The notes: a model not told the origin generated them from the sequence alone. Counted from the stretch's first letter, positions 1,789 through 29,050 are shown. The stretch is 64,000 bases of DNA from Candidatus Cloacimonadales bacterium (GCA_963665815.1 OY762463.1:512001-576000), one strand, 5' to 3'. Numbers and translations: made by a program.

Positions 1789-3507
1789 CTATTTGAGTAG
1801 CAGCATTTTACTTGTCTCAGAATGTTTCTCAGTCTTTAACTTATAGAAGTATACTCCACTGGAAACATCGTTGTTATTTGAGTCTTTACCATTCCAAACT
1901 ATTGAGTGTTCTCCTTGATTAATATAATCATTAACAAGTGTTCTCACTTTTTGTCCCTTCAAATTGTATATAGACAATTCTGCACGACCTTCTTCAGCGA
2001 TTGAGAATTTTATCTCAGTCTGAGGATTGAATGGATTAGGGTAATTACTCAAAGATATGATGTCATAAGCATAGCTTTCATTATTACTTACATTTACCTG
2101 ATTTTCAATTGCTCCCATGTCGATTTCCGTTCCGAAAATTCTTGGATTACCAAGAAAGTCAAATTCAGTAAGAGTTACAATAGTTGTATCACTGATTCCT
2201 GTATCAATACAGGGTGAACTTGATTGAAGAGAGAAATCAAAGTTAGCTTCATCTGTGAACATAGGGTTTACTTCAATATTATTTTGTCCATAGTTGTAGG
2301 TTGGATCTCCCATACTTGATTCACTTATAGATGAAACACCGTATTCTACGTTACAGTAATCAATATCAACATTACCGTCAATCATGAAGAATTGGTTCTG
2401 TCTGTTTCCATAGAAAATACAGTTATAGAACTTGTCAGATCCACTGTAGCGCCCCAGCATAACTCTTCCATTTGTTGCAGAATTCTCATACATCACGCAG
2501 TTTATAAATGAACTATATGCATATCCTGATCCAAAATAAACTCCTCCGTAACGAGCTCCGTTGTTATAGAAGACGCAGTTGTTAAAACAAGGTGAAGAAC
2601 TGTATACTGTAACTGCTCCTCCCGAATCATTGCCTCTGTTTTGAGTGAACACGCAATTCTCAATCAGTCCATTAGAATTATACCATATTAATAATCCACC
2701 ACCATCATCACCAGCTTCATTATCATGAAATAAGACATTCTTAAGATGATATGTTATGTCTCTGGAAAATCCAAGTCCTCCACCTCTAACTTCCGCCTCA
2801 TTACCGCTGATTTCGCAATCATACATTTCAAGATGACAGTATCTTGCATGGATTCCACCAGAGAAACTGCTTCGATTGTTCTTTATCTCTGAGTTAGTTA
2901 TAGTGATTGAGGAAGAATGCATCAAGATTCCACCTCCGGTTCTTATTGTATGATTCGGAGTTCCATAAAGCCTGTTATGCTTTACAACACAATGATCCAG
3001 GTTACTTGTTGAGTTCTTAAAGAATATTCCTCCACCTTTACCAAATGATGTGTCTACACCAGCGTAGTTATACTCAATACTGCAGTATGAAATCGTTGGT
3101 GACGCATCAACGCAGAGAATTCCTCCTCCATAATTATACTCGAATCCAGGATTCTCAAAATCTCCCCAGGTTCCATTACCATTTGTTATTGTAAATCCAA
3201 TGATTTTTGTGCTGTCTGATTCCTGAGAATTGAAAGTAACAACAGATGTGCTGTCTCTACCATCAATAATTGTCTGACTAATGTATGAAGTATCACTTGC
3301 CGTAATAAACTCTGAGGTCAGAACAATATTTTTACCCATCAGGTTAATATTCTCATAATATGTACCCGGAGATACTATTATTGTGTCCGGCTCTACAGCC
3401 GCGTTAATTGCACTCTGAATAGACAGGAAATCTGCAGGAACATATATTACAGCTGAAGCCCCGCAAGCAATAATCAATATTAATAGAAAACTAATTTTTT
3501 TTAACAT
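1789..3507 (-). CDS. Secreted right-handed parallel beta-helix protein with choice-of-anchor-Q-like motif and FlgD-Ig/T9SS-like C-terminal domain
   Basis: Signal peptide MLKKISFLLILIIACGASA after a GGAG-type RBS; VPADFLSIQSAINAA; repeated GGG/N-x-A motifs; FSLQSSSPCIDTG...IDMGAIE; C-terminal NYPNPFNPQTEI...WNGKD...SGVYFYKL. Confidence 0.88.
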   Translation of the reverse strand: MLKKISFLLILIIACGASAVIYVPADFLSIQSAINAAVEPDTIIVSPGTYYENINLMGKNIVLTSEFITASDTSYISQTIIDGRDSTSVVTFNSQESDSTKIIGFTITNGNGTWGDFENPGFEYNYGGGILCVDASPTISYCSIEYNYAGVDTSFGKGGGIFFKNSTSNLDHCVVKHNRLYGTPNHTIRTGGGILMHSSSITITNSEIKNNRSSFSGGIHARYCHLEMYDCEISGNEAEVRGGGLGFSRDITYHLKNVLFHDNEAGDDGGGLLIWYNSNGLIENCVFTQNRGNDSGGAVTVYSSSPCFNNCVFYNNGARYGGVYFGSGYAYSSFINCVMYENSATNGRVMLGRYSGSDKFYNCIFYGNRQNQFFMIDGNVDIDYCNVEYGVSSISESSMGDPTYNYGQNNIEVNPMFTDEANFDFSLQSSSPCIDTGISDTTIVTLTEFDFLGNPRIFGTEIDMGAIENQVNVSNNESYAYDIISLSNYPNPFNPQTEIKFSIAEEGRAELSIYNLKGQKVRTLVNDYINQGEHSIVWNGKDSNNNDVSSGVYFYKLKTEKHSETSKMLLLK

Positions 3508-3625
3508 ACTCTTTCTCCCTAATATACTAAATTGACCAGTACTCATTTAGTCAACTTTTTATTTTATTGTGATATAATTATCTATTTAAATGTTTTATTG
3601 TATGAATTAATTTTCATGTAAAACA

Positions 3626-3651
3626 AAACCCCGCTTTTTCGAAACGGGGTT
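3626..3651 (-). terminator. Rho-independent terminator
   Basis: AACCCCG...CGGGGTT hairpin with an adjacent A-run, downstream of the 3677 stop. Confidence 0.65.
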
Positions 3652-3676
3652 AATGTATGATTGAGAGATGTGCTTT

Positions 3677-6130
3677 CTATTTAAGCAGCAGCATTTTACT
3701 TGTCTCAGAATGTTTATCAGTCTTTAGTTTATAGAAGTATACTCCACTGGAAACATCTTTGTTATTTAAGTCTTTACCATTCCAAACTATTGAGTGTTCT
3801 CCTTGATTAATATAATCATTAACAAGTGTTCTCACTTTTTGTCCCTTCAAATTGTATATCGACAATTCTGCACGACCTTCTTCAGCGATTGAGAATTTTA
3901 TCTCAGTCTGAGGATTGAATGGATTAGGGTAGTTTCCTATGATTTGAGTACAATAAGGTTCAATAAAGCCATCTGTGTTAGGAGTAATAATAGTATTGTT
4001 CAGTATTTCGAGGATTTCCCCGGATGAGGTTGCAAATACTATATCAATAGAATTATTGTTGTCAATATCACCTGCTGTTAATGCTGTTATTAAATTGTTT
4101 TGCGCAAGTACATTATTAGACCAGTTCGTCATTGAACCGTTATTCTCCAGAACTCCAATAACATTCATAGGTTGACTTGAGTTAAGATAAGCGAAATCAA
4201 GGTCTCCATCGTCATCAACATCAATTATTTCACCGTAATCATAGTAGTCAAGATATCCGATTACTTGTGGAGTAGATGAGAACTGTCCAAAATTTATCGT
4301 ACCTGTATATACTGAAATGGAATTATCCTGATAATGTGGAGGGACGATAATATCCAGGAAACCATCATTATTCATGTCGCAGCATTTGAAAATATTAACT
4401 CCATCTTCATTAAAAACCAGATCGGAAAGTCCAAAAGACATATTTCCGTTGTTATAACTAACTCTGATGTATCCATTGGGTACAGAATAAAGCATATCCG
4501 GTAGATTATCATTATTTACATCAACAAGCTCGAGATGATTGAAATCTTCCTGACTAACAATTATGCCGTTACTGAAAGTTCCCTGTGAGTTCTCGTATAT
4601 AGTTATGTGATCACCATCATTCCTGTTGCAAGCATATACAATGTCGAGATCTCCATCATTGTCCATATCTTTGAAACAGCAACTCGAGTTCCCATACAAA
4701 TAATCAGTTGAGTTTAACACAGTTTTCTGTCCATTCTGATAATAACATAACTGTTCTATTCGTGAATATCTTGAATAAAGGTCATCTATGACTACATAAT
4801 CTAAATCTCCGTTAAAATCGATATCTGCACAGTCATAGTTGTGAATATTATTCATGTCTGTTTCAGGAACTGTCGTTGGAAGAAATACATTGTTATCTAC
4901 TTCGATTTCACTGATAAAAGCCCAGCTAGAGTAAGTAATAAAGGGACTTCCTCCGGCTTCAGCAACTTTCATGTTTCTAATAGATTTATATGATTCCAGA
5001 CTTCTATTGTCAAGATTGAAAACACCTGCATTGTTCTGATAGACAAGATAGCAGCCTGCATCAAGTTCACAGTTGATTTCCGGATAGCCATCATAGTTAT
5101 AGTCAGCAATGAAAAAGTACATTCCGGATGTTTCAAGGGAATAAGCTTGAGAGTATCCACCAGTTCCTGCATAATAAACGTCAAGTTCATTGAAATCATG
5201 TTTTACACAGAAATCATCAATACTATCGTTGTTCAAATCTGCAACTGTAATGCATCTCGCATCAAGAACAGAGTCAGCAAGAACTACAGAATTGCTGAAG
5301 CTCTGGTTAACATCATTCTCGTAAATTACAAGCTGTTCCTGACTGGAATCATAATGAAGAATATCCTTCAAACCGTCATTGTTATTGTCTACTAATGCAT
5401 ACTGATCCTGATAATCAAACATGGCAATATCGTGATTAGTTATGAAAGTATTTGCCGAAGAATCAAACTCCAGCCATTTCAATGGTGAATTATATTGAGA
5501 AACACCAACAATATCCATATCACCATCGTTATCCATATCAGCAATAATATTATAATTATTATGCAATTGATCTTTACGTTGATTGTACACTGAATTGTTA
5601 AGATTTACTATAGCGAAAGTGTCTGTAAGTGTTGCTCTGGAAAGGTATTTTCCCATATTATAGTTACCCAGATAGATGTCTTTAAATCCGTCGTTGTTGA
5701 AATCATAGTAAAGAGTAGTTTCGCATTTATCAAAACCTATATACACCGGTGATTCCATTGTGAAGTTTCCTGCCCCGTCATTTGTGAATATGTATAGGTT
5801 TTCTTCTACAAGAACAGTTACAACGATGTCATTGTATCCATCATTATTCATATCGGTAAACTCAATTGATTCCAGCCAATATGAGAAACTTCCCAGATTG
5901 TGCATCTGATAGTAAGACCCATCTCCGTTTGTGTCCTCTTGCCACACAAGATCATTTTGATTATTCTCAATATAATCCATGTCTCCATCATAGTCAATGT
6001 CTGCAATAGTGCATTTTCCTATGTTCGTTAATCTGTTTTGTCTAAGCATTGATTGAGATGGTGAATAATCAACTGCCCCAACATGACTTGATAATAAAAA
6101 AAGAAATAGTGTAAAATGAAAATATCTCAT
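3677..6130 (-). CDS. Secreted FG-GAP/VCBS-repeat beta-propeller protein with FlgD-Ig/T9SS-like C-terminal domain
   Basis: Signal peptide; many DxDxDGDxD repeats; same C-terminal NYPNPFNP domain; AGGAGG RBS. Confidence 0.9.
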   Translation of the reverse strand: MRYFHFTLFLFLLSSHVGAVDYSPSQSMLRQNRLTNIGKCTIADIDYDGDMDYIENNQNDLVWQEDTNGDGSYYQMHNLGSFSYWLESIEFTDMNNDGYNDIVVTVLVEENLYIFTNDGAGNFTMESPVYIGFDKCETTLYYDFNNDGFKDIYLGNYNMGKYLSRATLTDTFAIVNLNNSVYNQRKDQLHNNYNIIADMDNDGDMDIVGVSQYNSPLKWLEFDSSANTFITNHDIAMFDYQDQYALVDNNNDGLKDILHYDSSQEQLVIYENDVNQSFSNSVVLADSVLDARCITVADLNNDSIDDFCVKHDFNELDVYYAGTGGYSQAYSLETSGMYFFIADYNYDGYPEINCELDAGCYLVYQNNAGVFNLDNRSLESYKSIRNMKVAEAGGSPFITYSSWAFISEIEVDNNVFLPTTVPETDMNNIHNYDCADIDFNGDLDYVVIDDLYSRYSRIEQLCYYQNGQKTVLNSTDYLYGNSSCCFKDMDNDGDLDIVYACNRNDGDHITIYENSQGTFSNGIIVSQEDFNHLELVDVNNDNLPDMLYSVPNGYIRVSYNNGNMSFGLSDLVFNEDGVNIFKCCDMNNDGFLDIIVPPHYQDNSISVYTGTINFGQFSSTPQVIGYLDYYDYGEIIDVDDDGDLDFAYLNSSQPMNVIGVLENNGSMTNWSNNVLAQNNLITALTAGDIDNNNSIDIVFATSSGEILEILNNTIITPNTDGFIEPYCTQIIGNYPNPFNPQTEIKFSIAEEGRAELSIYNLKGQKVRTLVNDYINQGEHSIVWNGKDLNNKDVSSGVYFYKLKTDKHSETSKMLLLK

Positions 6131-6553
6131 ATTTCCTCCTTAAATTAAAATAAATCCGTAAATAAAAAAAAAGTAAAGATAATTCTTCCGGAATTCAGTA
6201 AAAAAGTAGATACTGCAAAATGCATTTCTTGTAAAATCCCAAACTGCAAAATATCTTAATGTACACATTTGCTATCATAGCAAATTAAGTTCCAATGTGG
6301 AATATTATCCATATTACATTGAAGATTCAATATTGGAAATATTTGTAAAATCATAAAATCAATAAATTCAGGAGAATTAATATGGTAAAACTTTTTTCGA
6401 TGCAACATAAAACATCAGGAACATTTATAGTATTGATGATTACTATTGTATATGATATTGTCAATATACATAGACGTATGTGTTTGGTCAAGAAGATGAC
6501 TTATTAATTCAACAAAGAAACTATTTTGTTCTTCAAAAATTATTTTTTTGGGT

Positions 6554-7719
6554 GCGTTCAAATAACTGGGTCTGAAGGAGACCCTAATTAGTTTTGACAA
6601 AAAGAGTTACATTAGATTATTCGCATGTCATGCGGATAAAGAAAAAAAACGATGTCCTCTTTGTGAAAGTTTGAACACAAAAAAGAAAGGTTTTACAACT
6701 AGGATTATTAGTACAATGCGAGGTAAAACACATAGTAAACTGCAACGATACTATTGTAACGATTGTCAGCATAGTTTTACATCTCAAGGTTATAATAAAC
6801 GGAAATCATTTTCCAGCGATCTTAAAGAGAAAGTGATACTTGATTACGTATTAACAAAAAGTTCTCTTTCTGAGACAGGGCAAAGATACAACGTTAGTAA
6901 AAGTAGTATATGCAATTGGATCATAGAGAACAGTGCTAAATTTTCATCAATAAACAAGTTGCCTATGTATCAGAAAACAAGTGGATACATTCAGTTTGAC
7001 GGTAAATTTCCAACAATTGCGGGAACTGCCTATTGCTTGCTGCATGCATCTGATGCACACACAAATGAACCAATATGTTATGGACTCTATCGCCGGGAAG
7101 ATACTGAAGCAACTAATACTTTTCTCAAAATGTTAAAAAGAATCTATCCATCCGAAATTAAGGGAATTATCAGTGACTTTGGTAAAGGAAGGTGCTTCAT
7201 TAAGCCAATAGAACAGTTATTCCCTGAAGCCTTGCACCAGATATGCATTGTACACTATCTAAGGTATGTAAGTATGTTCTTACCCAGAACCAAACGCAGT
7301 CAATATTTCATAAGAAATCGATTTATGAAAGGACTTATACGCAATATGTTAAGAGCACCGGACAGAAGTGAATCGGAATTTTGGTATCTACTATTTAATC
7401 ACTTCATACCTTTCTTCAAAGCAGATTATCATAAGCGATTTATTCGTTCCATAACAAAACATTATAGTAAATTAACTGCATTCTATGAAGATGAAATGTT
7501 AATATCAAATACCAATATGATTGAAAATAGAAACAGACAACTTGAAAGAAAACTGAAAAACATAGATGGCTTTGGTGCAATTAACAATGCAAAAAAGTTC
7601 TTGCAAATATGGTTTCACTTTCAGAAAATGAAATACAAATAAAAATCAGAATAACTTCAACAATAATTTTGAAACTATTCTGATTTGAAAATAATTATTA
7701 GACCCAGTTATTTGGACGC
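6554..7719 (+). mobile_element. Insertion sequence, IS256-like with N-terminal zinc ribbon
   Basis: Terminal inverted repeats GCGTTCAAATAACTGGGTCT (6554-6573) and AGACCCAGTTATTTGGACGC (7700-7719), 19/20 match, flank a transposase ORF. No target-site duplication seen. Confidence 0.85.
6630..7642 (+). CDS. Transposase (IS256/Mutator-like DDE with CxxC...CxxC ribbon and HTH); start uncertain, may need a -1 frameshift at A8C
   Basis: Frame open upstream of 6671 reads RCPLCES...RYYCNDC; motifs FDG, ISD, HQICIVH, NTNMIENRN. The nearest usable ATG (6630) is one frame off. Confidence 0.8.
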
Positions 7720-7722
7720 TGC

Positions 7723-7978
7723 TGATAAAACAGAAATTGATACGTTTGAATCATCTGCTACAGGTGTTCCAGATTTAGTCGTGGGTAGCTTAAGATATTC
7801 TACACATGAAAAATGGCACAGGGCTCAAAAATTGTTTGGAATTCCTGAAAGCTTTCAAAGTGAGTGGAGTTCACTTGAATTTAAGGAAAAATTAAGATAC
7901 AGTAATGATATCAATGAATATGATTGCATACAAAATATGAACAAATTCTTTGGTGGAACGGAAAGGGAATATCATTAA
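7723..7978 (+). pseudogene. 3' remnant of a cassette ORF truncated by the IS
   Basis: Open frame starts at the IS right end (DKTEIDTFESS...EREYH*). It occupies the same position relative to a propeller gene as ORF 9998-11011. Read past the TAA, the frame continues to a second TAA at 8020 beside the next RBS. Confidence 0.55.
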
Positions 7979-8024
7979 GATTTCCTCTTACCGACCAAGC
8001 ATTCTGAAGAACAGGAGTAACAAT

Positions 8025-9665
8025 ATGCATTTTAAAAAAATAGCGATACTGACATTAATTCTTTTTACTCAGTTTGTTATTATTAAAGCTGAAGTAATAG
8101 ACACAATTAATATACCTGAGAGAATAAAAAATCATTCAAACAATATTGGTAGGAATGATGACATCATAGCTTTATTTGTCGAAAAATCAAACTCAGATAT
8201 GGAACATTTCGATGAGTTCAATCTTCTACTTAAAAATACAGATAGTAGGGGCAATGTTGTATTAGAAAAACAATACTCCTATTATTGTACTAAAAGCAGG
8301 TATAGCAGCAATTACGGAATACATGAAGCAACTTGCGATATTCAAGGTAACATTTATGTTTTTGGATATTTCACTGGAATTATTGAAATTTTCGGAGACC
8401 TGCTAAAGTCCGAACCTTGCAGGGTATCTTTGCAGTTTGATATTTTTGAGCGTGATAAAGTTACCACAAATACATTGAAGATTTACAATGGTTTTGTTGC
8501 AAAACTTGATAGTCTGGGAAATCCCTTGTGGGTCGTAAAAACAACCGGTCCAAAGCGTGATTACTGCTGGGATGATGACGGTAATTTATGCCTCTTAAAT
8601 GGATATAGATCCAGATGGACATATATGTCTGGACAAAGAGATGATGAAAAATATATTTCATCTGCATTGAAAATTAATAGTGATGGGAAAATAATCAGTT
8701 CATATTTTCCTGGTGATGTATCTTTCTTCAAGGAGTACTTTTATACATGGAGTAAATCAGGTAAGCTCTATATTATTGGACTTCAGGGAGCACCATCGAA
8801 ATATAATGAATTACTTCTGGCAACAAGAGTAAACACGGAATTACACTTTCAGAAGCTCAATATCTCTGCGATCAGGGGAAGTAAAATAATCACCTGTGCG
8901 TTCCTGGATAGTTCTGAGAATCCGGTTTTTACTCTTTACAGTAGGGATTTTTTTAGGTTGGGAGAGTATAGCAAAAAAGACACACTTATAATAAATGGGG
9001 AGAAAATATTTCAGGATAGCCCAATAACGTTCAAGTACAATATAAGATCTGATAGCCTTGATTTTGATTTGAATAAGAGCAATGGACGTAGAACCAGTGT
9101 GATTGAGAGAACAGGTAACTTTGTAATCAAGGAATCTATCTCGGATACTGTTAGAATATCATATAAAAATTTATCCAGTCCAATGTTTAGAATTTTTCAT
9201 AACGACTTTTGGCGTAAGAGAGAAAAAGGAAATGAAAGAGAGTTTTTGATCGAGGATATAGATAATAACGAAGTTGCTCGATTTAGAACTAAAGGATATT
9301 TTGAGGTACAATTCGTAAGACCATTGGATGAAGGATACCTGATATTAGGCCAGATGGGGAACACTTTAAGGATAAACGGACATATGGTTATCAAGAATGA
9401 ACAACAAAAGTCAAACTGGATTGAAATACTGGTAGATCGGGATAATAATATTTATCATTTAGCATTTATGGATTTCCGTCCGTCAATATATCCGGGATAC
9501 TTTAACAAATATTTAGAAGATATTTTCTTAAACAACAGTGATCATATTATTTATTATATGATAGAAAATGATAAGTCAGATAATGAAACTGACTCTAAAA
9601 AGGAAGTTCTTAATATATATAAGTATGGAATTCCCTCAAATCCTGAAGGAAATTTTATCAAATAG
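8025..9665 (+). CDS. Secreted beta-propeller-like protein (SBBP-type repeats), putative partner or immunity protein
   Basis: AGGAG RBS then ATG 8025; signal peptide MHFKKIAILTLILFTQFVIIKA; DIQGNIYVFGYF and FVAKLDSLGNPLWV motifs. Confidence 0.7.
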   Translation: MHFKKIAILTLILFTQFVIIKAEVIDTINIPERIKNHSNNIGRNDDIIALFVEKSNSDMEHFDEFNLLLKNTDSRGNVVLEKQYSYYCTKSRYSSNYGIHEATCDIQGNIYVFGYFTGIIEIFGDLLKSEPCRVSLQFDIFERDKVTTNTLKIYNGFVAKLDSLGNPLWVVKTTGPKRDYCWDDDGNLCLLNGYRSRWTYMSGQRDDEKYISSALKINSDGKIISSYFPGDVSFFKEYFYTWSKSGKLYIIGLQGAPSKYNELLLATRVNTELHFQKLNISAIRGSKIITCAFLDSSENPVFTLYSRDFFRLGEYSKKDTLIINGEKIFQDSPITFKYNIRSDSLDFDLNKSNGRRTSVIERTGNFVIKESISDTVRISYKNLSSPMFRIFHNDFWRKREKGNEREFLIEDIDNNEVARFRTKGYFEVQFVRPLDEGYLILGQMGNTLRINGHMVIKNEQQKSNWIEILVDRDNNIYHLAFMDFRPSIYPGYFNKYLEDIFLNNSDHIIYYMIENDKSDNETDSKKEVLNIYKYGIPSNPEGNFIK

Positions 9666-9669
9666 TTGA

Positions 9670-10033
9670 AAGCCTGCCTTGAGCAGGCTTTTCTTTTAAT
9701 CACATGTATTGCAAAGAAAGAATTGACTAAAAAAAGGCTATACTAAGGGTATTCATTGTAGTAGGTCATTGAAAAGAATAGGAAAGTTCGTTGTATAAGC
9801 AATATACAAAGTTCTTTAAATGTATCTCCTATGGTCTTCGAACTGACGTTCTACAAACCTGATGAAAGATTCTCGGGTATGCACCCTACGAACTTGTGGA
9901 GATGAGACTCTCGGACATATGTCCTACGAGCTCATAGCTTGACGGAGCTTTAGCAGCATCCGGATGGGATTTCGGGCAATTACTGAAGTATCACCAGATG
10001 AAAATTCAGGCAGAAGAAAGAATGAGATATCTG
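9670..10033 (+). repeat. ~360-bp cassette-junction repeat, copy 1 (terminator, spacer, two GTAG-REP-like palindromes, conserved coding stub)
   Basis: Highly similar to 12413-12776 (offset 2743). Starts with the AAGCCTGC...GCAGGCTTTT terminator. Contains GGGTATGCACCCTAC and GGACATATGTCCTAC. Confidence 0.93.
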
Positions 10034-11011
10034 AATTCTCTGGCAAAAGCAAAAGCAGAGTGTGAAGCAGCTAATAAATATTATTGGGATCGAGCTAAAG
10101 CTGAACATGATGCCTGGTCGGATGAAATTGCAGAACTGGGCTGGGAAATGATAGAGGAAGCACTTGCTATTAAGGAGTTGTTAGAGACACTTGATGCATT
10201 GAAGGTTATGGGATTTAATGATAAAGACAATATTCCTGAAAACTATCCTACAAATGAGCTTTCAAAAGATAAAGAAGAAAACAAAAATCCTTCTAGAGTG
10301 CTTCAGGAAAAACTTACAAAAGTTATCAATGATCATTTCAGCACAGATTTTGAAGCAAGTATTCTAAAAAATCTGACAATAGGATCATTAGTTGGCGAAG
10401 GTTTCATTGACAAATTTGTTCAAGGATTTAGTGATATGCTTGAGCATGGTGGAACTGAAGGTTATGATCTAGTCAACAGTTTACTTGATGGCTTTGAAAA
10501 TGGGAAAAAACTTACCTTATTTGATACTTCACTAATTCCAGATGATTCTTCAACTGGATTTAATGGTATTCTACCTTTTACTAATGAAAAGAAACTAACA
10601 AACAATGTTCATTTGTATCTTGACTTACATACTTCCGTTGATGATAAAATGACTTCAACATTGCATACACAGTATATTACTTTAACACCTTTAAGAAAAA
10701 TGGTTCATGAGTTAACTCATGTGGCAGATTATTTTGGGTTTGAAAATTATGAAGAGTATACTGAATATAGAAAAGATTACAAAAAGTTTGGTAAAACGAG
10801 CATTATGAATGTTGGAGGAAGGAACTATAAACTTGATGTTCCAAATCCTGGAGAACTGAGTGCTCTAATGACAACCAATATAATTTTGAATAATATTCAG
10901 AATTCAAAAGGTATTCGGGACCAAGATGTGAGAACAGTATATGGAAGATTTAAGAATGAAGACTATAGCCCCATTCATTTTGAAACAGATTTGTATGGAA
11001 ATAAACTTTAA
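9938..11011 (+). CDS. HExxH zincin-like putative toxin or effector cassette, probably 5'-truncated (first ATG 9998)
   Basis: MVHELTHVAD motif with a downstream E (GELSA). The frame is open from 9938 (LDGALAASGWDFGQLLKYHQ) with no clear RBS before ATG 9998. Confidence 0.7.
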   Translation, partial: LDGALAASGWDFGQLLKYHQMKIQAEERMRYLNSLAKAKAECEAANKYYWDRAKAEHDAWSDEIAELGWEMIEEALAIKELLETLDALKVMGFNDKDNIPENYPTNELSKDKEENKNPSRVLQEKLTKVINDHFSTDFEASILKNLTIGSLVGEGFIDKFVQGFSDMLEHGGTEGYDLVNSLLDGFENGKKLTLFDTSLIPDDSSTGFNGILPFTNEKKLTNNVHLYLDLHTSVDDKMTSTLHTQYITLTPLRKMVHELTHVADYFGFENYEEYTEYRKDYKKFGKTSIMNVGGRNYKLDVPNPGELSALMTTNIILNNIQNSKGIRDQDVRTVYGRFKNEDYSPIHFETDLYGNKL

Positions 11012-11026
11012 CAAGGAGCAAATCAG

Positions 11027-12406
11027 ATGGTTAGATATATATACTTAGTAACATATTTTCTTTGTTTTACTTTCATCCTTAGCACAAATTGTTTTGCCAA
11101 GGATTTATGGGAATCTATTAAATTTGTTAAGCCTGAAAATGAAAATGAGGATTATTTTGTAGAGGATATTCAAAAGGACAAATTATTGATACAGAAGAGA
11201 ACTATATCATATCCTAATAAAGGAGTAAACCGACCATTTCAAGAGTCTTCTATTCTATTTGTTATGGATACATCAAATTCTCGAATTGATAGTATTATGT
11301 ATGCAGGATCAAATGATTTTTCTATAAGTAGTCCAAAGTTTAGTAAAGATGCTCAAGAATTATTTATGTATATATCATATAGAGATTCCTTATATGTTAA
11401 TGACTCACTCACTGCTGTTTATGATTATCCACAAAAAAATAACGGTCTTTTTGCAAAATTTAACAACAAGAAAGAGATTCAATGGATATTTTTTCCAGAA
11501 GTTAAATACTTACGATCAGCAAGATCTGGAAGAATAATTGGACAAAATAATAAATCTGATGTGTTTACTTCATTCAATTATCAAAGAATTGATAGCTTGA
11601 GTGAAAACTACGTTAAAAATGTAGTATACACAAAATTTTCTAGTTCTGGGCAGATACAATGGCAGCGAGAAATCGAGTACAATCTCGTTGAGATATCAAA
11701 CCCAATTACTTTTTTGTCAGATAATAATCTTTATTGTGCTACTGCTTTTAAAGATAGTATAAAACTTGAATCAAAGACAATCAAATCGAAATTCAATGAA
11801 TCGATAATAGTCTTAAAATTTGATACAGATGGTAACATCTTATGGCACAAACAAATTAATAAAGATTCGATAATTGAGGAAAAGAGAATCTGTAAAGGAG
11901 AAGATGGAAATTTATACTTAGCATTAATGTGTATAAATGATGTTGCTTTTGATGATAAAGTTATTAAATGTGCTCCCCTGAGTCTCGATGATGTTAATTC
12001 ATTAAGGAATTACGGTAGATGGTTAATTATTAAGTTTGATGATAATGGTGAAATTTTAAATGCAGGTTCAACAGGAATTTATGGATCAAATAGAGTAGAC
12101 TTCATGCGCATTGATAGTAATGGTAATGTTTTCTTTCAAGGAATCTTCTCGACATTATATAATGAAATGGCAAGTAAGAAACTTACTAATGACACCTATG
12201 ATCGATATTTCGAAGCGGTATTTGATTCTGACTTAAATCTAATCGAATACAAAATCTGTGAGGAAACATTTCCAGCAAGAATTCAATGGATGGACAATTT
12301 CATTATTAGAGAAGAGTTTGAGCAAAAAAAAGATTGTGACGATGTTAAATACAAAATACTGAAAGCAGATCTCCCTTTGCTGTTAAAAACAAAACCTGTG
12401 GAGTAA
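11027..12406 (+). CDS. Secreted beta-propeller-like protein (SBBP-type repeats), putative partner or immunity protein
   Basis: AAGGAG RBS, 15 bp after the upstream stop; signal peptide; KFSSSGQIQWQR, LKFDTDGNILWHK, IDSNGNVFFQG repeats. Confidence 0.75.
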   Translation: MVRYIYLVTYFLCFTFILSTNCFAKDLWESIKFVKPENENEDYFVEDIQKDKLLIQKRTISYPNKGVNRPFQESSILFVMDTSNSRIDSIMYAGSNDFSISSPKFSKDAQELFMYISYRDSLYVNDSLTAVYDYPQKNNGLFAKFNNKKEIQWIFFPEVKYLRSARSGRIIGQNNKSDVFTSFNYQRIDSLSENYVKNVVYTKFSSSGQIQWQREIEYNLVEISNPITFLSDNNLYCATAFKDSIKLESKTIKSKFNESIIVLKFDTDGNILWHKQINKDSIIEEKRICKGEDGNLYLALMCINDVAFDDKVIKCAPLSLDDVNSLRNYGRWLIIKFDDNGEILNAGSTGIYGSNRVDFMRIDSNGNVFFQGIFSTLYNEMASKKLTNDTYDRYFEAVFDSDLNLIEYKICEETFPARIQWMDNFIIREEFEQKKDCDDVKYKILKADLPLLLKTKPVE

Positions 12407-12412
12407 ATATAT

Positions 12413-12800
12413 AAGCCTGCCTCGAGCAGGCTTTTCTTTTAATCACATGTATTGCAAAGAAAGAATTGACTAAAAAAACGCTGTACTAAGAGTATTCATT
12501 TTAGTAGGTCATTGAAAAGGATAAGAAACTTCGCTGTATAAGCAATATACAAAGTTCTTTAAATGTATCTTCTATGGTCTTCGAACTGACGTTCTACAGA
12601 CCTGATGAAAGATTCTCGGGTATGCACCCTACGAACTTGTGGAGATGAGACTCTCGGACATATGTCCTACCAGCTCATAGCTTGACGGAGCTTTAGCAGC
12701 ATCCGGATGGGATTTCGGGCAACTTTTGAAGTACCACCAGACAAAAGTTCAGTATGAAGAAAGAATGAAGTTTCTGGAAGCTCTTGCTATTAAGGAGTTG
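12413..12800 (+). repeat. Cassette-junction repeat, copy 2, with a degenerate coding stub
   Basis: Matches 9670 onward. The ATG equivalent is ACA (12741). The stub reads ...QLLKYHQTKVQYEERMKFLEALAIKELL and stops soon after. Confidence 0.92.
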
Positions 12801-12999
12801 CTATCTAAGCTTCATGAAATGCGGATTCCAAAATTTTTTGTTTATGGTAAGATTTGTTTCTGATACTCACAAATAAAAGGAACATGTAAGTTTGTAGATT
12901 TCCTGAACATTTTACACCTGATCAATGTTTTTAAGTATCAACAAAATAATGAATATACTTCATAACGGATTAAACACAAAATATTTACAGGCTTTAAAA

Positions 13000-13099
13000 T
13001 GGTCGGGATGACAGGATTTGAACCTGCGGCCTCGCGGTCCTGAACCGGAAAGCTGAGTTTACTCAGTCTTCGAACGCTACCGAACTGCGCTACATCCCG
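13000..13099 (-). tRNA. tRNA-Pro-like gene (probably a pseudo-tRNA) with CAG anticodon and a 23-nt insertion in the anticodon stem
   Basis: Minus strand reads CGGGATG TA GCGC AGTTCGGTA GCGT T CG[AAGACTGAGTAAACTCAGCTTTC]CGG TTCAGGA CCGCG AGGCC GCAGG TTCAAAT CCTGT CATCCCG ACCA. Removing the bracket gives a 77-nt cloverleaf. Confidence 0.85.
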
Positions 13100-13674
13100 A
13101 CTATGAAGTATAAAAAAACATGCTGACATTTGCTGTAAAGTAATTTTTCAAGTTAATCTGTGATTTGTTGATTTATATCAGGAGCTAATGGCTATCAGGT
13201 TTCGGGATGATCCCGATTTATCGGGACGGCCTCACGGTCCTGAACCGGAAAGCTGAGTTTACTCAGTCTTCGAACGCTACCGAACTGAGCTACATCCCGA
13301 CTATGAAGTATAAAAAAAACATGCTGACATTTGCTGTAAAGTAATTTTTCAAGTTAATCTGTGATTTGTTGATTTATATCAGGAACTAATGGCTATCAGG
13401 TTTCGGGATGATCCCGATTTATCGGGACGGCCTCGCGGTCCTGAACCGGAAAGCTGAGTTTACTCAGTCTTCGAACGCTACCGAACTGCGCTACATCCCG
13501 ACTATGAAGTATAAAAAAACATGCTGACATTTGCTGTAAAGTAATTTTTCAAGTTAATCTGTGATTTGTTGATTTATATCAGGAGCTAATGGCTATCAGG
13601 TTTCGGGATGATCCCGATTTATCGGGACGGCCTCGCGGTCCTGAACCGGAAAGCTGAGTTTACTCAGTCTTCGA
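13003..13674 (-). repeat. Tandem array of ~3.3 units of 200-201 bp, each with a tRNA-Pro-like remnant and its upstream leader
   Basis: CGGCCTC anchor at 13027, 13227, 13428 and 13628; units differ by a few substitutions and A7/A8. Confidence 0.95.
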
Positions 13675-13786: not shown

Positions 13787-14593
13787 ATGGAACGATCACC
13801 CAAGCAACTTAGTATGGAACGAAAAATCCTCAGGATTGCCAGTGGTAAAGCTGTAACCCTACTGGAAAGAATATTTGCAGATGATGAACTGCAGGCCATG
13901 CAGGATTATGCAAATTATGTGTCAATTAAACGTCTTGGATTCAACGATCATGGTCCTGTCCACATGAGAACAGCGACATATAACGCTCTGAAGATGTTCA
14001 ACCTGCTTAGAGAAGCAAATGTGAAGTTCACTTTGGAAGAAGAAGGAATTGGTGCTTCTGACGACAGTTTATGTGCTGTTGTAATGGGATCACTTTTTCA
14101 CGATCTCGGTATGACAATCACTCGCAGTAATCATGAATTCTACAGTTTTCAACTGGCTTTACCGTATATCCAGAGATTTCTGGATGAGATATATTCACCA
14201 GACCAGTTACTATTAAAAAAAGCAGTGCAGTCTGTTACTCTGGAAAGTATTATAGGACATATGGCAACAACTAAAATAAACTCTCTTGAAGCCGGTTTGG
14301 TTTTGATTGCCGATGGTTCTGACATGGAAAAGGGGAGAGCGAGAATACCGACTTTATTGTCCGGGGACCCAAAGCCCGGAGATATTCACAGAACATCAGC
14401 AGGAGAAATTGAGAATGTGATAATCTGTAAGGGTGAAGAAAAACCTATTAAGATTATTGTTAAGATGAATGCTTCGGTTGGACTATTCCAGATTGAGGAA
14501 GTGTTCTATCCAAAAATCAATTTTTCCCCAGTTAAAAAGTATATAGAACTTTATGCCGGTGTGAAAGAAAGAGAGCTGCTGAAATATCTTTAG
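13787..14593 (+). CDS. HD-domain metal-dependent phosphohydrolase (COG3294-like)
   Basis: NDHGPVH, LFHDLG, IIGH, IADGSDMEKGRAR motifs. Confidence 0.88.
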   Translation: MERSPKQLSMERKILRIASGKAVTLLERIFADDELQAMQDYANYVSIKRLGFNDHGPVHMRTATYNALKMFNLLREANVKFTLEEEGIGASDDSLCAVVMGSLFHDLGMTITRSNHEFYSFQLALPYIQRFLDEIYSPDQLLLKKAVQSVTLESIIGHMATTKINSLEAGLVLIADGSDMEKGRARIPTLLSGDPKPGDIHRTSAGEIENVIICKGEEKPIKIIVKMNASVGLFQIEEVFYPKINFSPVKKYIELYAGVKERELLKYL

Positions 14594-27655: not shown

Positions 27656-27904
27656 AAGATCTCCTTAGGACATAATTCTTTTATATACAAAATAGTTACA
27701 GCCACTATTCTGTCAAAGTAAATTCGATTGATAGATTGTAATAATGATAAAATATCGGAATTCAGGTCAGTTTTGCATATATTATCCGGATATATCAGGA
27801 ACTCAGAGACTTGGTTAGTATCATCTATAAGCGAAGTTCATTGAAAGACTGTGTGGAGCCGACGTAAAATATAAAATTACAAATTATTTATGTCTCAGAT
27901 TTTC

Positions 27905-29050
27905 CAGATTCTTCGGAGCTCAATCTACTTATCTTACTGATAATGATAATGATGAAAGCTCCCTGAGTCCCGATTATGTCGGGAAAGGGAATTTGCCGTG
28001 AACAAAAGAAACGACCAAAATCACGTTTTACACACACTGTGAGCGGAGTCGAAGGGGAAAAGATACATAAAGAAAGAATAAAGTAATTAATCCGGGAAAT
28101 CAATTGTTTGCTCAATAGCAAAATTACCCGACCTCGAAAAATCGATTCTAAGCGACGATAATAATTTCCGAATGATATTAGACTCGGAATATTAAATTAA
28201 ATCCCAAAACAGCCTTAAAATCGATATTTACATTTTTACATAAAACTTGACAGCTTGCTGAGATTAACAAAACTTAATACATCTTAACCAAAAGAACCCC
28301 AAACAATTAAATAAACATATTAAAGTTTACATAATGTAGATTATAATACATTGTGACTGTTTTTAAGAAAAGGGTACCCTATTCACTTTTTTCAGTTATT
28401 TTTGCATCCATCAAAAACACGAAAGTATTGATTATCAAGTTCAATGATACATACCTTTGGAATGGTCGAAGATCTTTATCAATCATTCCCTTCTCAATGA
28501 TTCTCGAAGTGATCCTTGTGAATGGTGTAAATATGCAATGGTCGTATCGAAAACTTCTTTGAAATGTCTGAACCTTGATCTTCATGATTTTCTTGATATA
28601 ATGATTTATGATGCAAAGCATCGTTTGCAGGGAACAATAATCATTGCTCCGTCTTGTATGATTATTGATAGGAGAGATGCTGCAATGTATGAGCCTCAGT
28701 CTCAGAATTATATACCCAGCTCTACCCTATGATTCTTTTCAACAACGAAAAACATGAAAGGACACGAAAAAGAAATTGAATTATTGAAAATATGTAGCAG
28801 ATTTTCCCGATAACTCGGGACTCAAGCAGCTTAACTTACTGATAAATACCAGGATAGAAGATCCCTGAGCGGAGTCGAAGGGAAAAGACTGAGAGCAAAA
28901 GTACGATAAAATTTACTTTTTTACACAGTCTGTCAGGGAACTTTTTAACTATATCTTTATCTATAGGTTAAATCCCCGTAGTCTTGATTAAGTCGGGAAA
29001 GGGAATTAATTTCAAATGAACAGAACAACATAAATGAGGTTTTACACATA
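27905..29050. repeat. Cluster of degenerate REP-like composite repeats
   Basis: 27905-27990 resembles 28798-28883; TGAGCGGAGTCGAAGGG at 28040 and 28866; TCCCGAT-Nn-TCGGGA at 27968, 28805 and (degenerate) 28982. Confidence 0.75.

Follow-up and report, generated by a model that had tools for sequence, protein, structure and literature searches.

The tRNA-like sequence at 13000..13098 (minus strand) of the window, by which the whole 64,000-nucleotide stretch of Candidatus Cloacimonadales DNA is meant, is the last of four head-to-tail copies in a tandem array. With moderate confidence it is interpreted as the terminal unit of an array of crippled, non-decoding copies of tRNA-Pro(CGG), which would have arisen by a tRNA-linked process of hairpins and nuclease cassettes and would have been amplified later. 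The locus looks like what hairpin insertion and duplication at the DNA level leave behind at a tRNA gene, rather than a new type of tRNA intron; a tempting false lead, that of a bacterial tRNA mini-intron, is removed by this finding. It also means that a genome can lose one tRNA isoacceptor and yet keep amplified, altered copies of it. In full-text searches of the literature no account was found of tandem crippled tRNA-Pro copies with hairpin-replaced arms.

Anatomy of the tRNA-like sequence and of the array

The flagged feature, referred to here as unit 4, was delimited by its match to the Rfam tRNA family and by alignment with the tRNA-Pro(CGG) genes of relatives. It is composed of an acceptor stem and a D arm of the proline type, a 23-nt insert, a CAG anticodon, a canonical T arm and an encoded CCA. 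The acceptor stem has 7 bp (CGGGATG/CATCCCG) and is followed by A as the discriminator, the D arm is normal, and the T arm is normal as well (GCAGG-TTCAAAT-CCTGT). The tRNA match (RF00005, 13003-13099, minus strand; 43.7 bits at a gathering score of 29) is the sole Rfam match within the 64-kb window, unit 4 alone passing the threshold, and it skips 38 nt in the anticodon arm, where 15 are expected.

No tRNA gene was called by ARAGORN in the 64-kb window or in the unedited stretch of unit 4. When positions 13048-13070 were sliced out, a 77-nt tRNA was called and labelled Leu(cag), with a CGCGG/CCGCG stem and the CCA encoded. The program is permissive in this respect, and the exact borders of the insert are ambiguous, because most deletions of 19-29 nt between about 13040 and 13085 likewise yield a call. 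When 7 canonical tRNA-Pro(CGG) genes from related genomes are aligned with it, they show a clean 23-column gap exactly opposite the insert. The hairpin described in the first-pass annotation is therefore real, its removal does restore a 77-nt cloverleaf, and the body of the molecule is indeed Pro-like by alignment. The CGG anticodon given there has to be corrected: the loop reads TTCAGGA, with CAG at 13040..13042 (minus strand) by sequence, alignment and ARAGORN, as against TTCGGGA, that is CGG, in the relatives.

The insert (13048..13070, minus strand), recognized from the alignment gap, from ARAGORN with and without it and from its fold, is a near-perfect palindrome. It interrupts the anticodon stem on its 5' side, after tRNA position 28 and before position 29, and is placed so that the cloverleaf stays intact. 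It consists of a 5-bp CTGAG/CTCAG stem, a TAAA loop and an extension GAAG/CTTT, and folds as a plain hairpin with one bulged A.

The picture of a single interrupted gene is incomplete, the flagged sequence being one of four units of an array. Tandem Repeats Finder placed the array at 13027..13674 (minus strand) with a period of 200 bp, 3.2 units and 98% matches. Each unit is made of an AT-rich spacer of about 100 nt and a tRNA-Pro-derived part of about 100 nt, and every unit contains the identical 23-nt insert, starting at 13048, 13248, 13449 and 13649, always on the minus strand. A 14-nt core of the insert has 4 exact copies on the minus strand of the window; at up to 2 mismatches it gave 10 matches, where 0.67 were expected, eight of the ten being the four palindromes counted on both strands.

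Unit 4 is the only array unit with a canonical T arm (loop of the TTCRANY type). In units 1-3 the sequence GTCCCGA-TAAA-TCGGGAT stands in place of the T arm and the 3' end is CATCCCGAAACC. The substitute, which also occurs in both copies of the sister species (G001), is a hairpin of 6-7 bp with a 4-nt loop. It was located at 13210-13227 in unit 3 (13198..13299, minus strand; insert 13248-13270; 3' end CATCCCGAAACC), at 13411-13428 in unit 2 (13399..13500, minus strand; insert 13449-13471) and at 13611-13628 in the truncated unit 1 (13599..13674, minus strand; insert 13649-13671). A TCCCGA-loop-TCGGGA hairpin thus stands in for the T arm in five of six copies: two of the three full units of the window, truncated unit 1 and the two copies of the sister species. 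Unit 1 begins at tRNA position 27 (TCGAAG...), 3 nt ahead of the insert, and adjoins the upstream region of a divergent gene with an HD motif; the remnant in the sister species starts at the same tRNA position.

In three short-read DNA runs of one sample, which is probably the source sample, the contigs break at the repeat, and their depth there is 2.3-3.3 times that of the flanks. This depth fits a real multi-copy array, though it is not independent support for it.

Distribution and conservation of the copies

In the complete genome from which the window is taken (3.96 Mb) the 23-mer has 4 exact copies, all within the array, the next best match showing 5 mismatches. A 15-nt core of the insert gave 14 further genome matches at up to 2 mismatches, compared with 1-22 for twenty shuffled cores. 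At up to 3 mismatches a 24-mer was found in two of the 203 genomes of the order, namely in this genome (4 copies) and in the sister species (2 copies, each carrying the insert with 1 change). When metagenomes were scanned with a pattern that spans the insert, the 3 loci returned were chance matches in GC-rich coding DNA. The two sister copies flank the ortholog of the HD-motif gene, one on either side; their T arms are both replaced, and their anticodons are CAG in one and CTG in the other.

An ordinary, insert-free tRNA-Pro(CGG) of 77-78 nt was called by ARAGORN at 10 of 11 related loci, the exception being that of the sister species, where a BLAST query returned only the two insert-bearing copies and tRNA-Pro(GGG), and no canonical tRNA-Pro(CGG). 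Among the 41 tRNA genes of the genome under study there is likewise no canonical tRNA-Pro(CGG); its proline tRNAs are TGG and GGG only, and tRNA-Leu(CAG) is present. By standard wobble rules the CCG codons (7.0 per 1000; CUG 19.3 per 1000) would be read by tRNA-Pro(UGG), and a CAG tRNA charged with proline would be harmful. With CAG as the anticodon here, and CAG in one sister copy and CTG in the other, neither species has a tRNA-Pro(CGG) decoder in these copies, and ARAGORN rejects the sequence as it stands, which agrees with the earlier proposal of an inactivated gene. From the anticodons it is predicted that no RNA transcribed from the array would read codons for proline. An intact tRNA-Pro(CGG) elsewhere had been named beforehand as part of what would speak against a function; since none exists in this genome, a role at the RNA level may still be considered. 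In the same tRNA complement ARAGORN reported a 95-nt tRNA with anticodon GCA, a long variable arm and a 6-bp anticodon stem (G000:C1:3767207-3767301), a shape resembling that of selenocysteine tRNA; a normal tRNA-Cys(GCA) is located at 3848885.

The comparison of the window copies with those of the sister species showed 3-5 differences in 98 nt, the units being 91-96% identical overall. About 50 nt upstream of each unit are conserved between units and between species, each unit having its own copy. At four-fold degenerate sites the two genomes are identical at 62.6% (67/107) in the HD-motif gene and at 63.6% (151 sites) in the C-terminal part of UvrC. The copies are far more alike between the species than the synonymous sites of these core genes, a feature that stands against the preferred reading and points to constraint or recent exchange, and not to old junk. 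The local background of identity is uneven. In a block of the window at 1789-6130, which contains two T9SS cargo genes, identity with the sister species is 85-88% at four-fold sites and 85-97% in intergenic DNA, and the block looks as if it had recently been exchanged between the lineages; since it is far more alike than the core genes, parts of the neighborhood seem to have been exchanged recently.

This similarity bears on an alternative that is rather unlikely, namely that the copies are a conserved, tRNA-derived noncoding RNA working outside decoding. It would be built of acceptor stem, D arm, anticodon arm and two added hairpins, would act in regulation or processing, or would titrate, as a decoy or sponge, a factor recognizing the tRNA-Pro body, and would be kept by selection and amplified for dosage. 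The few differences between the species, the upstream region carried by each unit, which would fit a transcribed gene, and the absence of a canonical tRNA-Pro(CGG) in either species all favor it, as does the fold of unit 3, which is more stable than its shuffles (z = -4.2). It is weakened by the kind of substitutions found among the six copies: three are wobble or loop changes, four or five are stem-breaking, and no compensatory pair occurs. The stem-breaking sites lie in the D stem of unit 3, in the insert stem and pair 1-72 of one sister copy (copy A) and in the T-replacing hairpin of the other (copy B). Neither the anticodon nor the 3' end is fixed (ACCA as against AACC), the folds of the other copies (z -0.4 to -2.6) were not distinguished from shuffles, and a promoter scan restricted to the sigma-70 type gave no site on the minus strand. 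Moreover, the copies are known from two species only, and their similarity could stem from recent exchange, as in the block at 1789-6130.

The T-arm-replacing hairpin and small GIY-YIG genes

The hairpin that replaces the T arm belongs to a dispersed family, with several copies at unrelated sites. TCCCGA/TCGGGA hairpins were counted at about 40 loci of the genome, where by a rough estimate about 2 would occur by chance. The idea of mobile mini-hairpins put forward in the first-pass annotation thus holds for the locus, by virtue of this dispersed hairpin, and fails for the 23-nt insert to which it had been applied. The insert does not resemble the TCCCGA hairpin family in sequence and lacks any independent copy; what would tie it to the process behind that hairpin is their co-occurrence.

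The tRNA-Pro(GGG) locus shares the architecture of the window array, with T-arm-replaced copies. This second array (L001:1446-2385, equal to G000:C1:3904945-3905884) contains three tRNA-Pro(GGG) pseudo-copies whose T arm is replaced, at a period of 269 bp, followed by the true tRNA-Pro(GGG) and then by a lone 3'-half module. The sister species instead shows four modules 57 bp apart after its true tRNA-Pro(GGG), and in another genome (G159) three modules 64-65 bp apart lie behind a canonical tRNA-Pro(CGG). Partial 3' copies were further observed behind tRNA-Asp and tRNA-Arg(CCT) (G000:C1:2530390-2530700 and 3423530-3423720). The 5' part of the T arm in these 3'-half copies is the TCCCGA...TCGGGA hairpin, and behind tRNA-Asp the trailer plus module is repeated. 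Small hairpins replace arms at four different tRNA genes of one complete genome, and the link to a nuclease is seen in the sister species.

Away from tRNAs, a TCCCGA-N4/5-TCGGGA hairpin forms the center of a dispersed repeat some 200 nt long, of which the genome has about 30 copies at 71-88% identity; about 23 copies are among the roughly 40 hairpin loci. Two copies lie in the window at about 27900-28050 and 28760-28900 (G000:539965 and 540823), and look-alikes exist in the sister species. The possibility that the hairpin is a copy of the tRNA-Pro acceptor stem was ruled out by the identical hairpin behind tRNA-Asp and tRNA-Arg and in the dispersed repeat.

The exact module pattern was found in 7 of the 203 genomes of the order, and a covariance model detected further, more diverged modules in about 17. 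In a species-level genome collection the exact pattern occurred in 78 stretches, 40 of which were classed as tRNA-type by their flanks. The record titles name Cloacimonadota, Ignavibacteria, Chitinophagaceae, other Bacteroidota, Balneolales-type genera and one Peregrinibacteria. Among 64 distinct rows the seventh pair of the hairpin is UA in 45, GC in 4, AU in 1, GU in 1 and other in 11, the remaining pairs being nearly invariant; with an alignment fitted to the model, such covariation is weak evidence for a structure.

The link to small GIY-YIG nucleases is clearest in the sister species, in which an 87-aa GIY-YIG ORF on the minus strand lies behind two tRNA-Asp genes (L188, G001:C13:1239800-1243000). 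The last codons and the stop of this ORF are inside a TCCCGA hairpin, and the ORF is flanked by tandem units of about 150 nt that consist of the 3' half of tRNA-Asp with the hairpin replacing part of the T arm. In other phyla small GIY-YIG ORFs abut crippled tRNA-Pro copies at 4 of the 40 tRNA-type loci; for the ORFs at L050 and L111 Pfam confirmed the assignment. In these two, whose record titles are Ferruginibacter and Bacteroidetes, the stop of the ORF is the conserved T8-A9-G10 of the tRNA-Pro copy, and the D arm of that copy is replaced by a GC-rich hairpin. The module-bearing genomes of the order have several small GIY-YIG genes. No intact small GIY-YIG gene was found in the genome under study, its three Pfam matches being UvrC, a 349-aa ORF and a broken 95-aa frame.

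Because the T-arm hairpin is dispersed, replaces T arms behind other tRNAs and overlaps the end of a GIY-YIG gene in the sister species, the array is read as a nuclease-less residue of DNA-level hairpin insertion into the stems of a tRNA copy. The tRNA-Pro(CGG) gene of the genus ancestor, or a spare copy of it, would have acquired three changes: a 23-nt palindromic hairpin would have been inserted on the 5' side of the anticodon stem, position 35 of the anticodon would have been altered to give CAG or CUG, and a TCCCGA-loop-TCGGGA hairpin would have supplanted the T arm in most copies. Recombination of the tRNA with a trailing 3'-half copy may have produced hybrid copies, and unequal crossing-over would then have amplified the 200-bp unit together with its promoter region. 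What was observed directly is the anatomy, copy numbers and distribution, the absence of a canonical tRNA-Pro(CGG), and the hairpin family together with its link to a nuclease in the sister species. We infer the order of these events, the mechanism of insertion and a similar mode of origin for the 23-nt hairpin and the T-arm hairpin. If the hairpin/nuclease process is real and general, it would be a source of pseudo-tRNAs mislabelled by annotation pipelines, and possibly a new selfish or defence-linked element at tRNA genes.

It is tempting to go further and to speculate, with little confidence, that a class of tiny palindromic DNA elements not described before, a part of which travels together with mini GIY-YIG nucleases, colonises the tRNA genes of Cloacimonadota, Ignavibacteria, Bacteroidota and Balneolales-type genera. 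These elements would insert into or rebuild the T arm, the D arm and the anticodon stem in register with the cloverleaf, the 23-nt hairpin being a private member. The arrays might then be kept since their RNA or single-stranded DNA hairpins act, for example as decoys or substrates of nucleases.

Genomic surroundings, weaker alternatives and known systems

The divergent neighbor of the array is the HD-motif gene (13787..14593, plus strand; 268 aa; no Pfam family), a single-copy core gene present in 183 of the 203 genomes of the order and 97% identical in amino-acid sequence in the sister species. It is not part of the element. In three genomes of the family that were checked (G003, G006, G004) the 8-kb stretch around tRNA-Pro(CGG) does not contain its ortholog. 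No functional link to the array is seen, because the gene is a core gene whose ortholog is absent near the tRNA-Pro(CGG) of these three genomes, and such a link was rejected.

Directly 3' of unit 4 lies a genome-specific 6.5-kb segment (6490..12997), absent at the same place in the sister species. It encodes an IS256/Mutator-type transposase of 323 aa at its far end (6671-7642, plus strand) and three ORFs without a Pfam family. In another genome (L115:4963-19661, G144:C115) 14.6 kb of defence-type genes, comprising an Eco57I-like methylase, an SNF2/PLD helicase, Fic, Schlafen/AlbA_2 and Bro-N, are enclosed by a canonical tRNA-Pro(CGG) on one side and a 3'-half hairpin module on the other. Since the module borders this stretch, modules also mark variable DNA.

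These borders invite the interpretation that the copies are scars of attachment sites, left by an integrase-borne island which repeatedly entered tRNA-Pro and at each entry supplied a 3' part made by the element (hairpin, altered anticodon and T-arm substitute), leaving hybrid and partial copies. Partial tRNA copies at island ends are described as a known and widespread product of integration (PMC9897764; bioRxiv 10.1101/2020.12.28.424599). In addition to the variable DNA next to unit 4 and in the 14.6-kb case, the truncated unit begins at tRNA position 27 in both species, and in a Chitinophagaceae genome one integrase adjoins a T-arm-replaced tRNA-Pro copy. Nevertheless this interpretation is considered improbable. 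None of the 4 tyrosine recombinases of the genome lies near either tRNA-Pro locus, no integrase was present among the 8 ORFs scanned in the 14.6-kb island, and a scan of 66 ORFs flanking 38 tRNA-type loci revealed an integrase domain at 1 of these loci. A search of the rest of the 64-kb window for a partial tRNA-Pro 3' end gave none. Tandem units of 57-269 bp are too small for integrating elements, and the hairpin also occurs in the dispersed repeat of about 200 nt away from tRNAs.

The proposal that the flagged hairpin of 23 nt is a mobile palindrome in its own right, which jumped into the tRNA gene and killed it, is nearly refuted: it is a clean palindrome that keeps the cloverleaf, and the genome has another small hairpin family that is mobile or dispersed, but the insert has no copy outside tRNA-Pro-derived units, the matches to its core are within the shuffled range, it is confined to 2 of 203 genomes, and the metagenome hits are chance matches. 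The suggestion that unit 4 still works as a tRNA, the insert being either accepted as an additional arm or excised as a mini-intron, is almost certainly wrong: acceptor stem, D arm, T arm and CCA are kept, the Rfam score is above threshold and the genome has no other tRNA-Pro(CGG), but CAG sits on a Pro-type body where CUG is frequent and tRNA-Leu(CAG) already exists, no sister copy and few of the others have a canonical T arm, the EndA-type splicing endonuclease domain (PF01974) is absent from the genome (4 archaeal controls were positive), and the insert, whose size is far below that of group I or II introns and which gave no Rfam match to either in the window, interrupts one strand of a stem, away from position 37/38.

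Known bacterial tRNA introns are large group I/II elements. With the bacterial group I introns and with the archaeal bulge-helix-bulge introns at non-canonical positions the flagged sequence has in common an intervening sequence inside a tRNA gene. It differs from both in that neither a splicing endonuclease domain nor an intron RNA match was found here, the insert being a plain hairpin in one strand of a stem and the anticodon a mismatch to the body. Very small dispersed repeats of 21-27 nt, reportedly mobile, are known from cyanobacteria; they resemble the insert in size, in being palindromic and in leaving the host RNA structure able to form, but their defining trait, many dispersed copies, is absent for the 23-nt insert.

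The array is like the partial or hybrid tRNA copies left by mobile DNA (attL/attR; PMC9897764) in that non-canonical tRNA-like copies occur beside a tRNA gene or in its place, share sequence with it over a part of its length, border variable DNA and may mislead tRNA finders. It differs from attL/attR fragments in its tandem units of 200 bp, each with a nearly whole tRNA and its own upstream region, in the lack of an integrase nearby, and in arms that are replaced or interrupted by perfect hairpins instead of being cut off.

The last comparison is with the Ssn family, single-domain GIY-YIG nucleases acting on single-stranded DNA, whose genes are reportedly flanked by hairpin repeats of 20-50 nt (NTS/SRM) (Chenal et al. 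2025, PMC11893778). The main text of that paper contains no mention of tRNA (0 occurrences), the 23-nt insert does not resemble the NTS, and the genome under study has no intact small GIY-YIG gene; a hairpin flanking such a gene was found in the sister species (TCCCGA, at tRNA-Asp), and neither in this genome nor for the 23-nt insert. As in the Ssn systems, a short inverted-repeat hairpin with many copies per genome flanks a small GIY-YIG gene, in the sister species behind tRNA-Asp, and its motif GTCG-TCCCGA...TCGGGA-TC resembles the NTS consensus as printed in the main text (PMC11893778).
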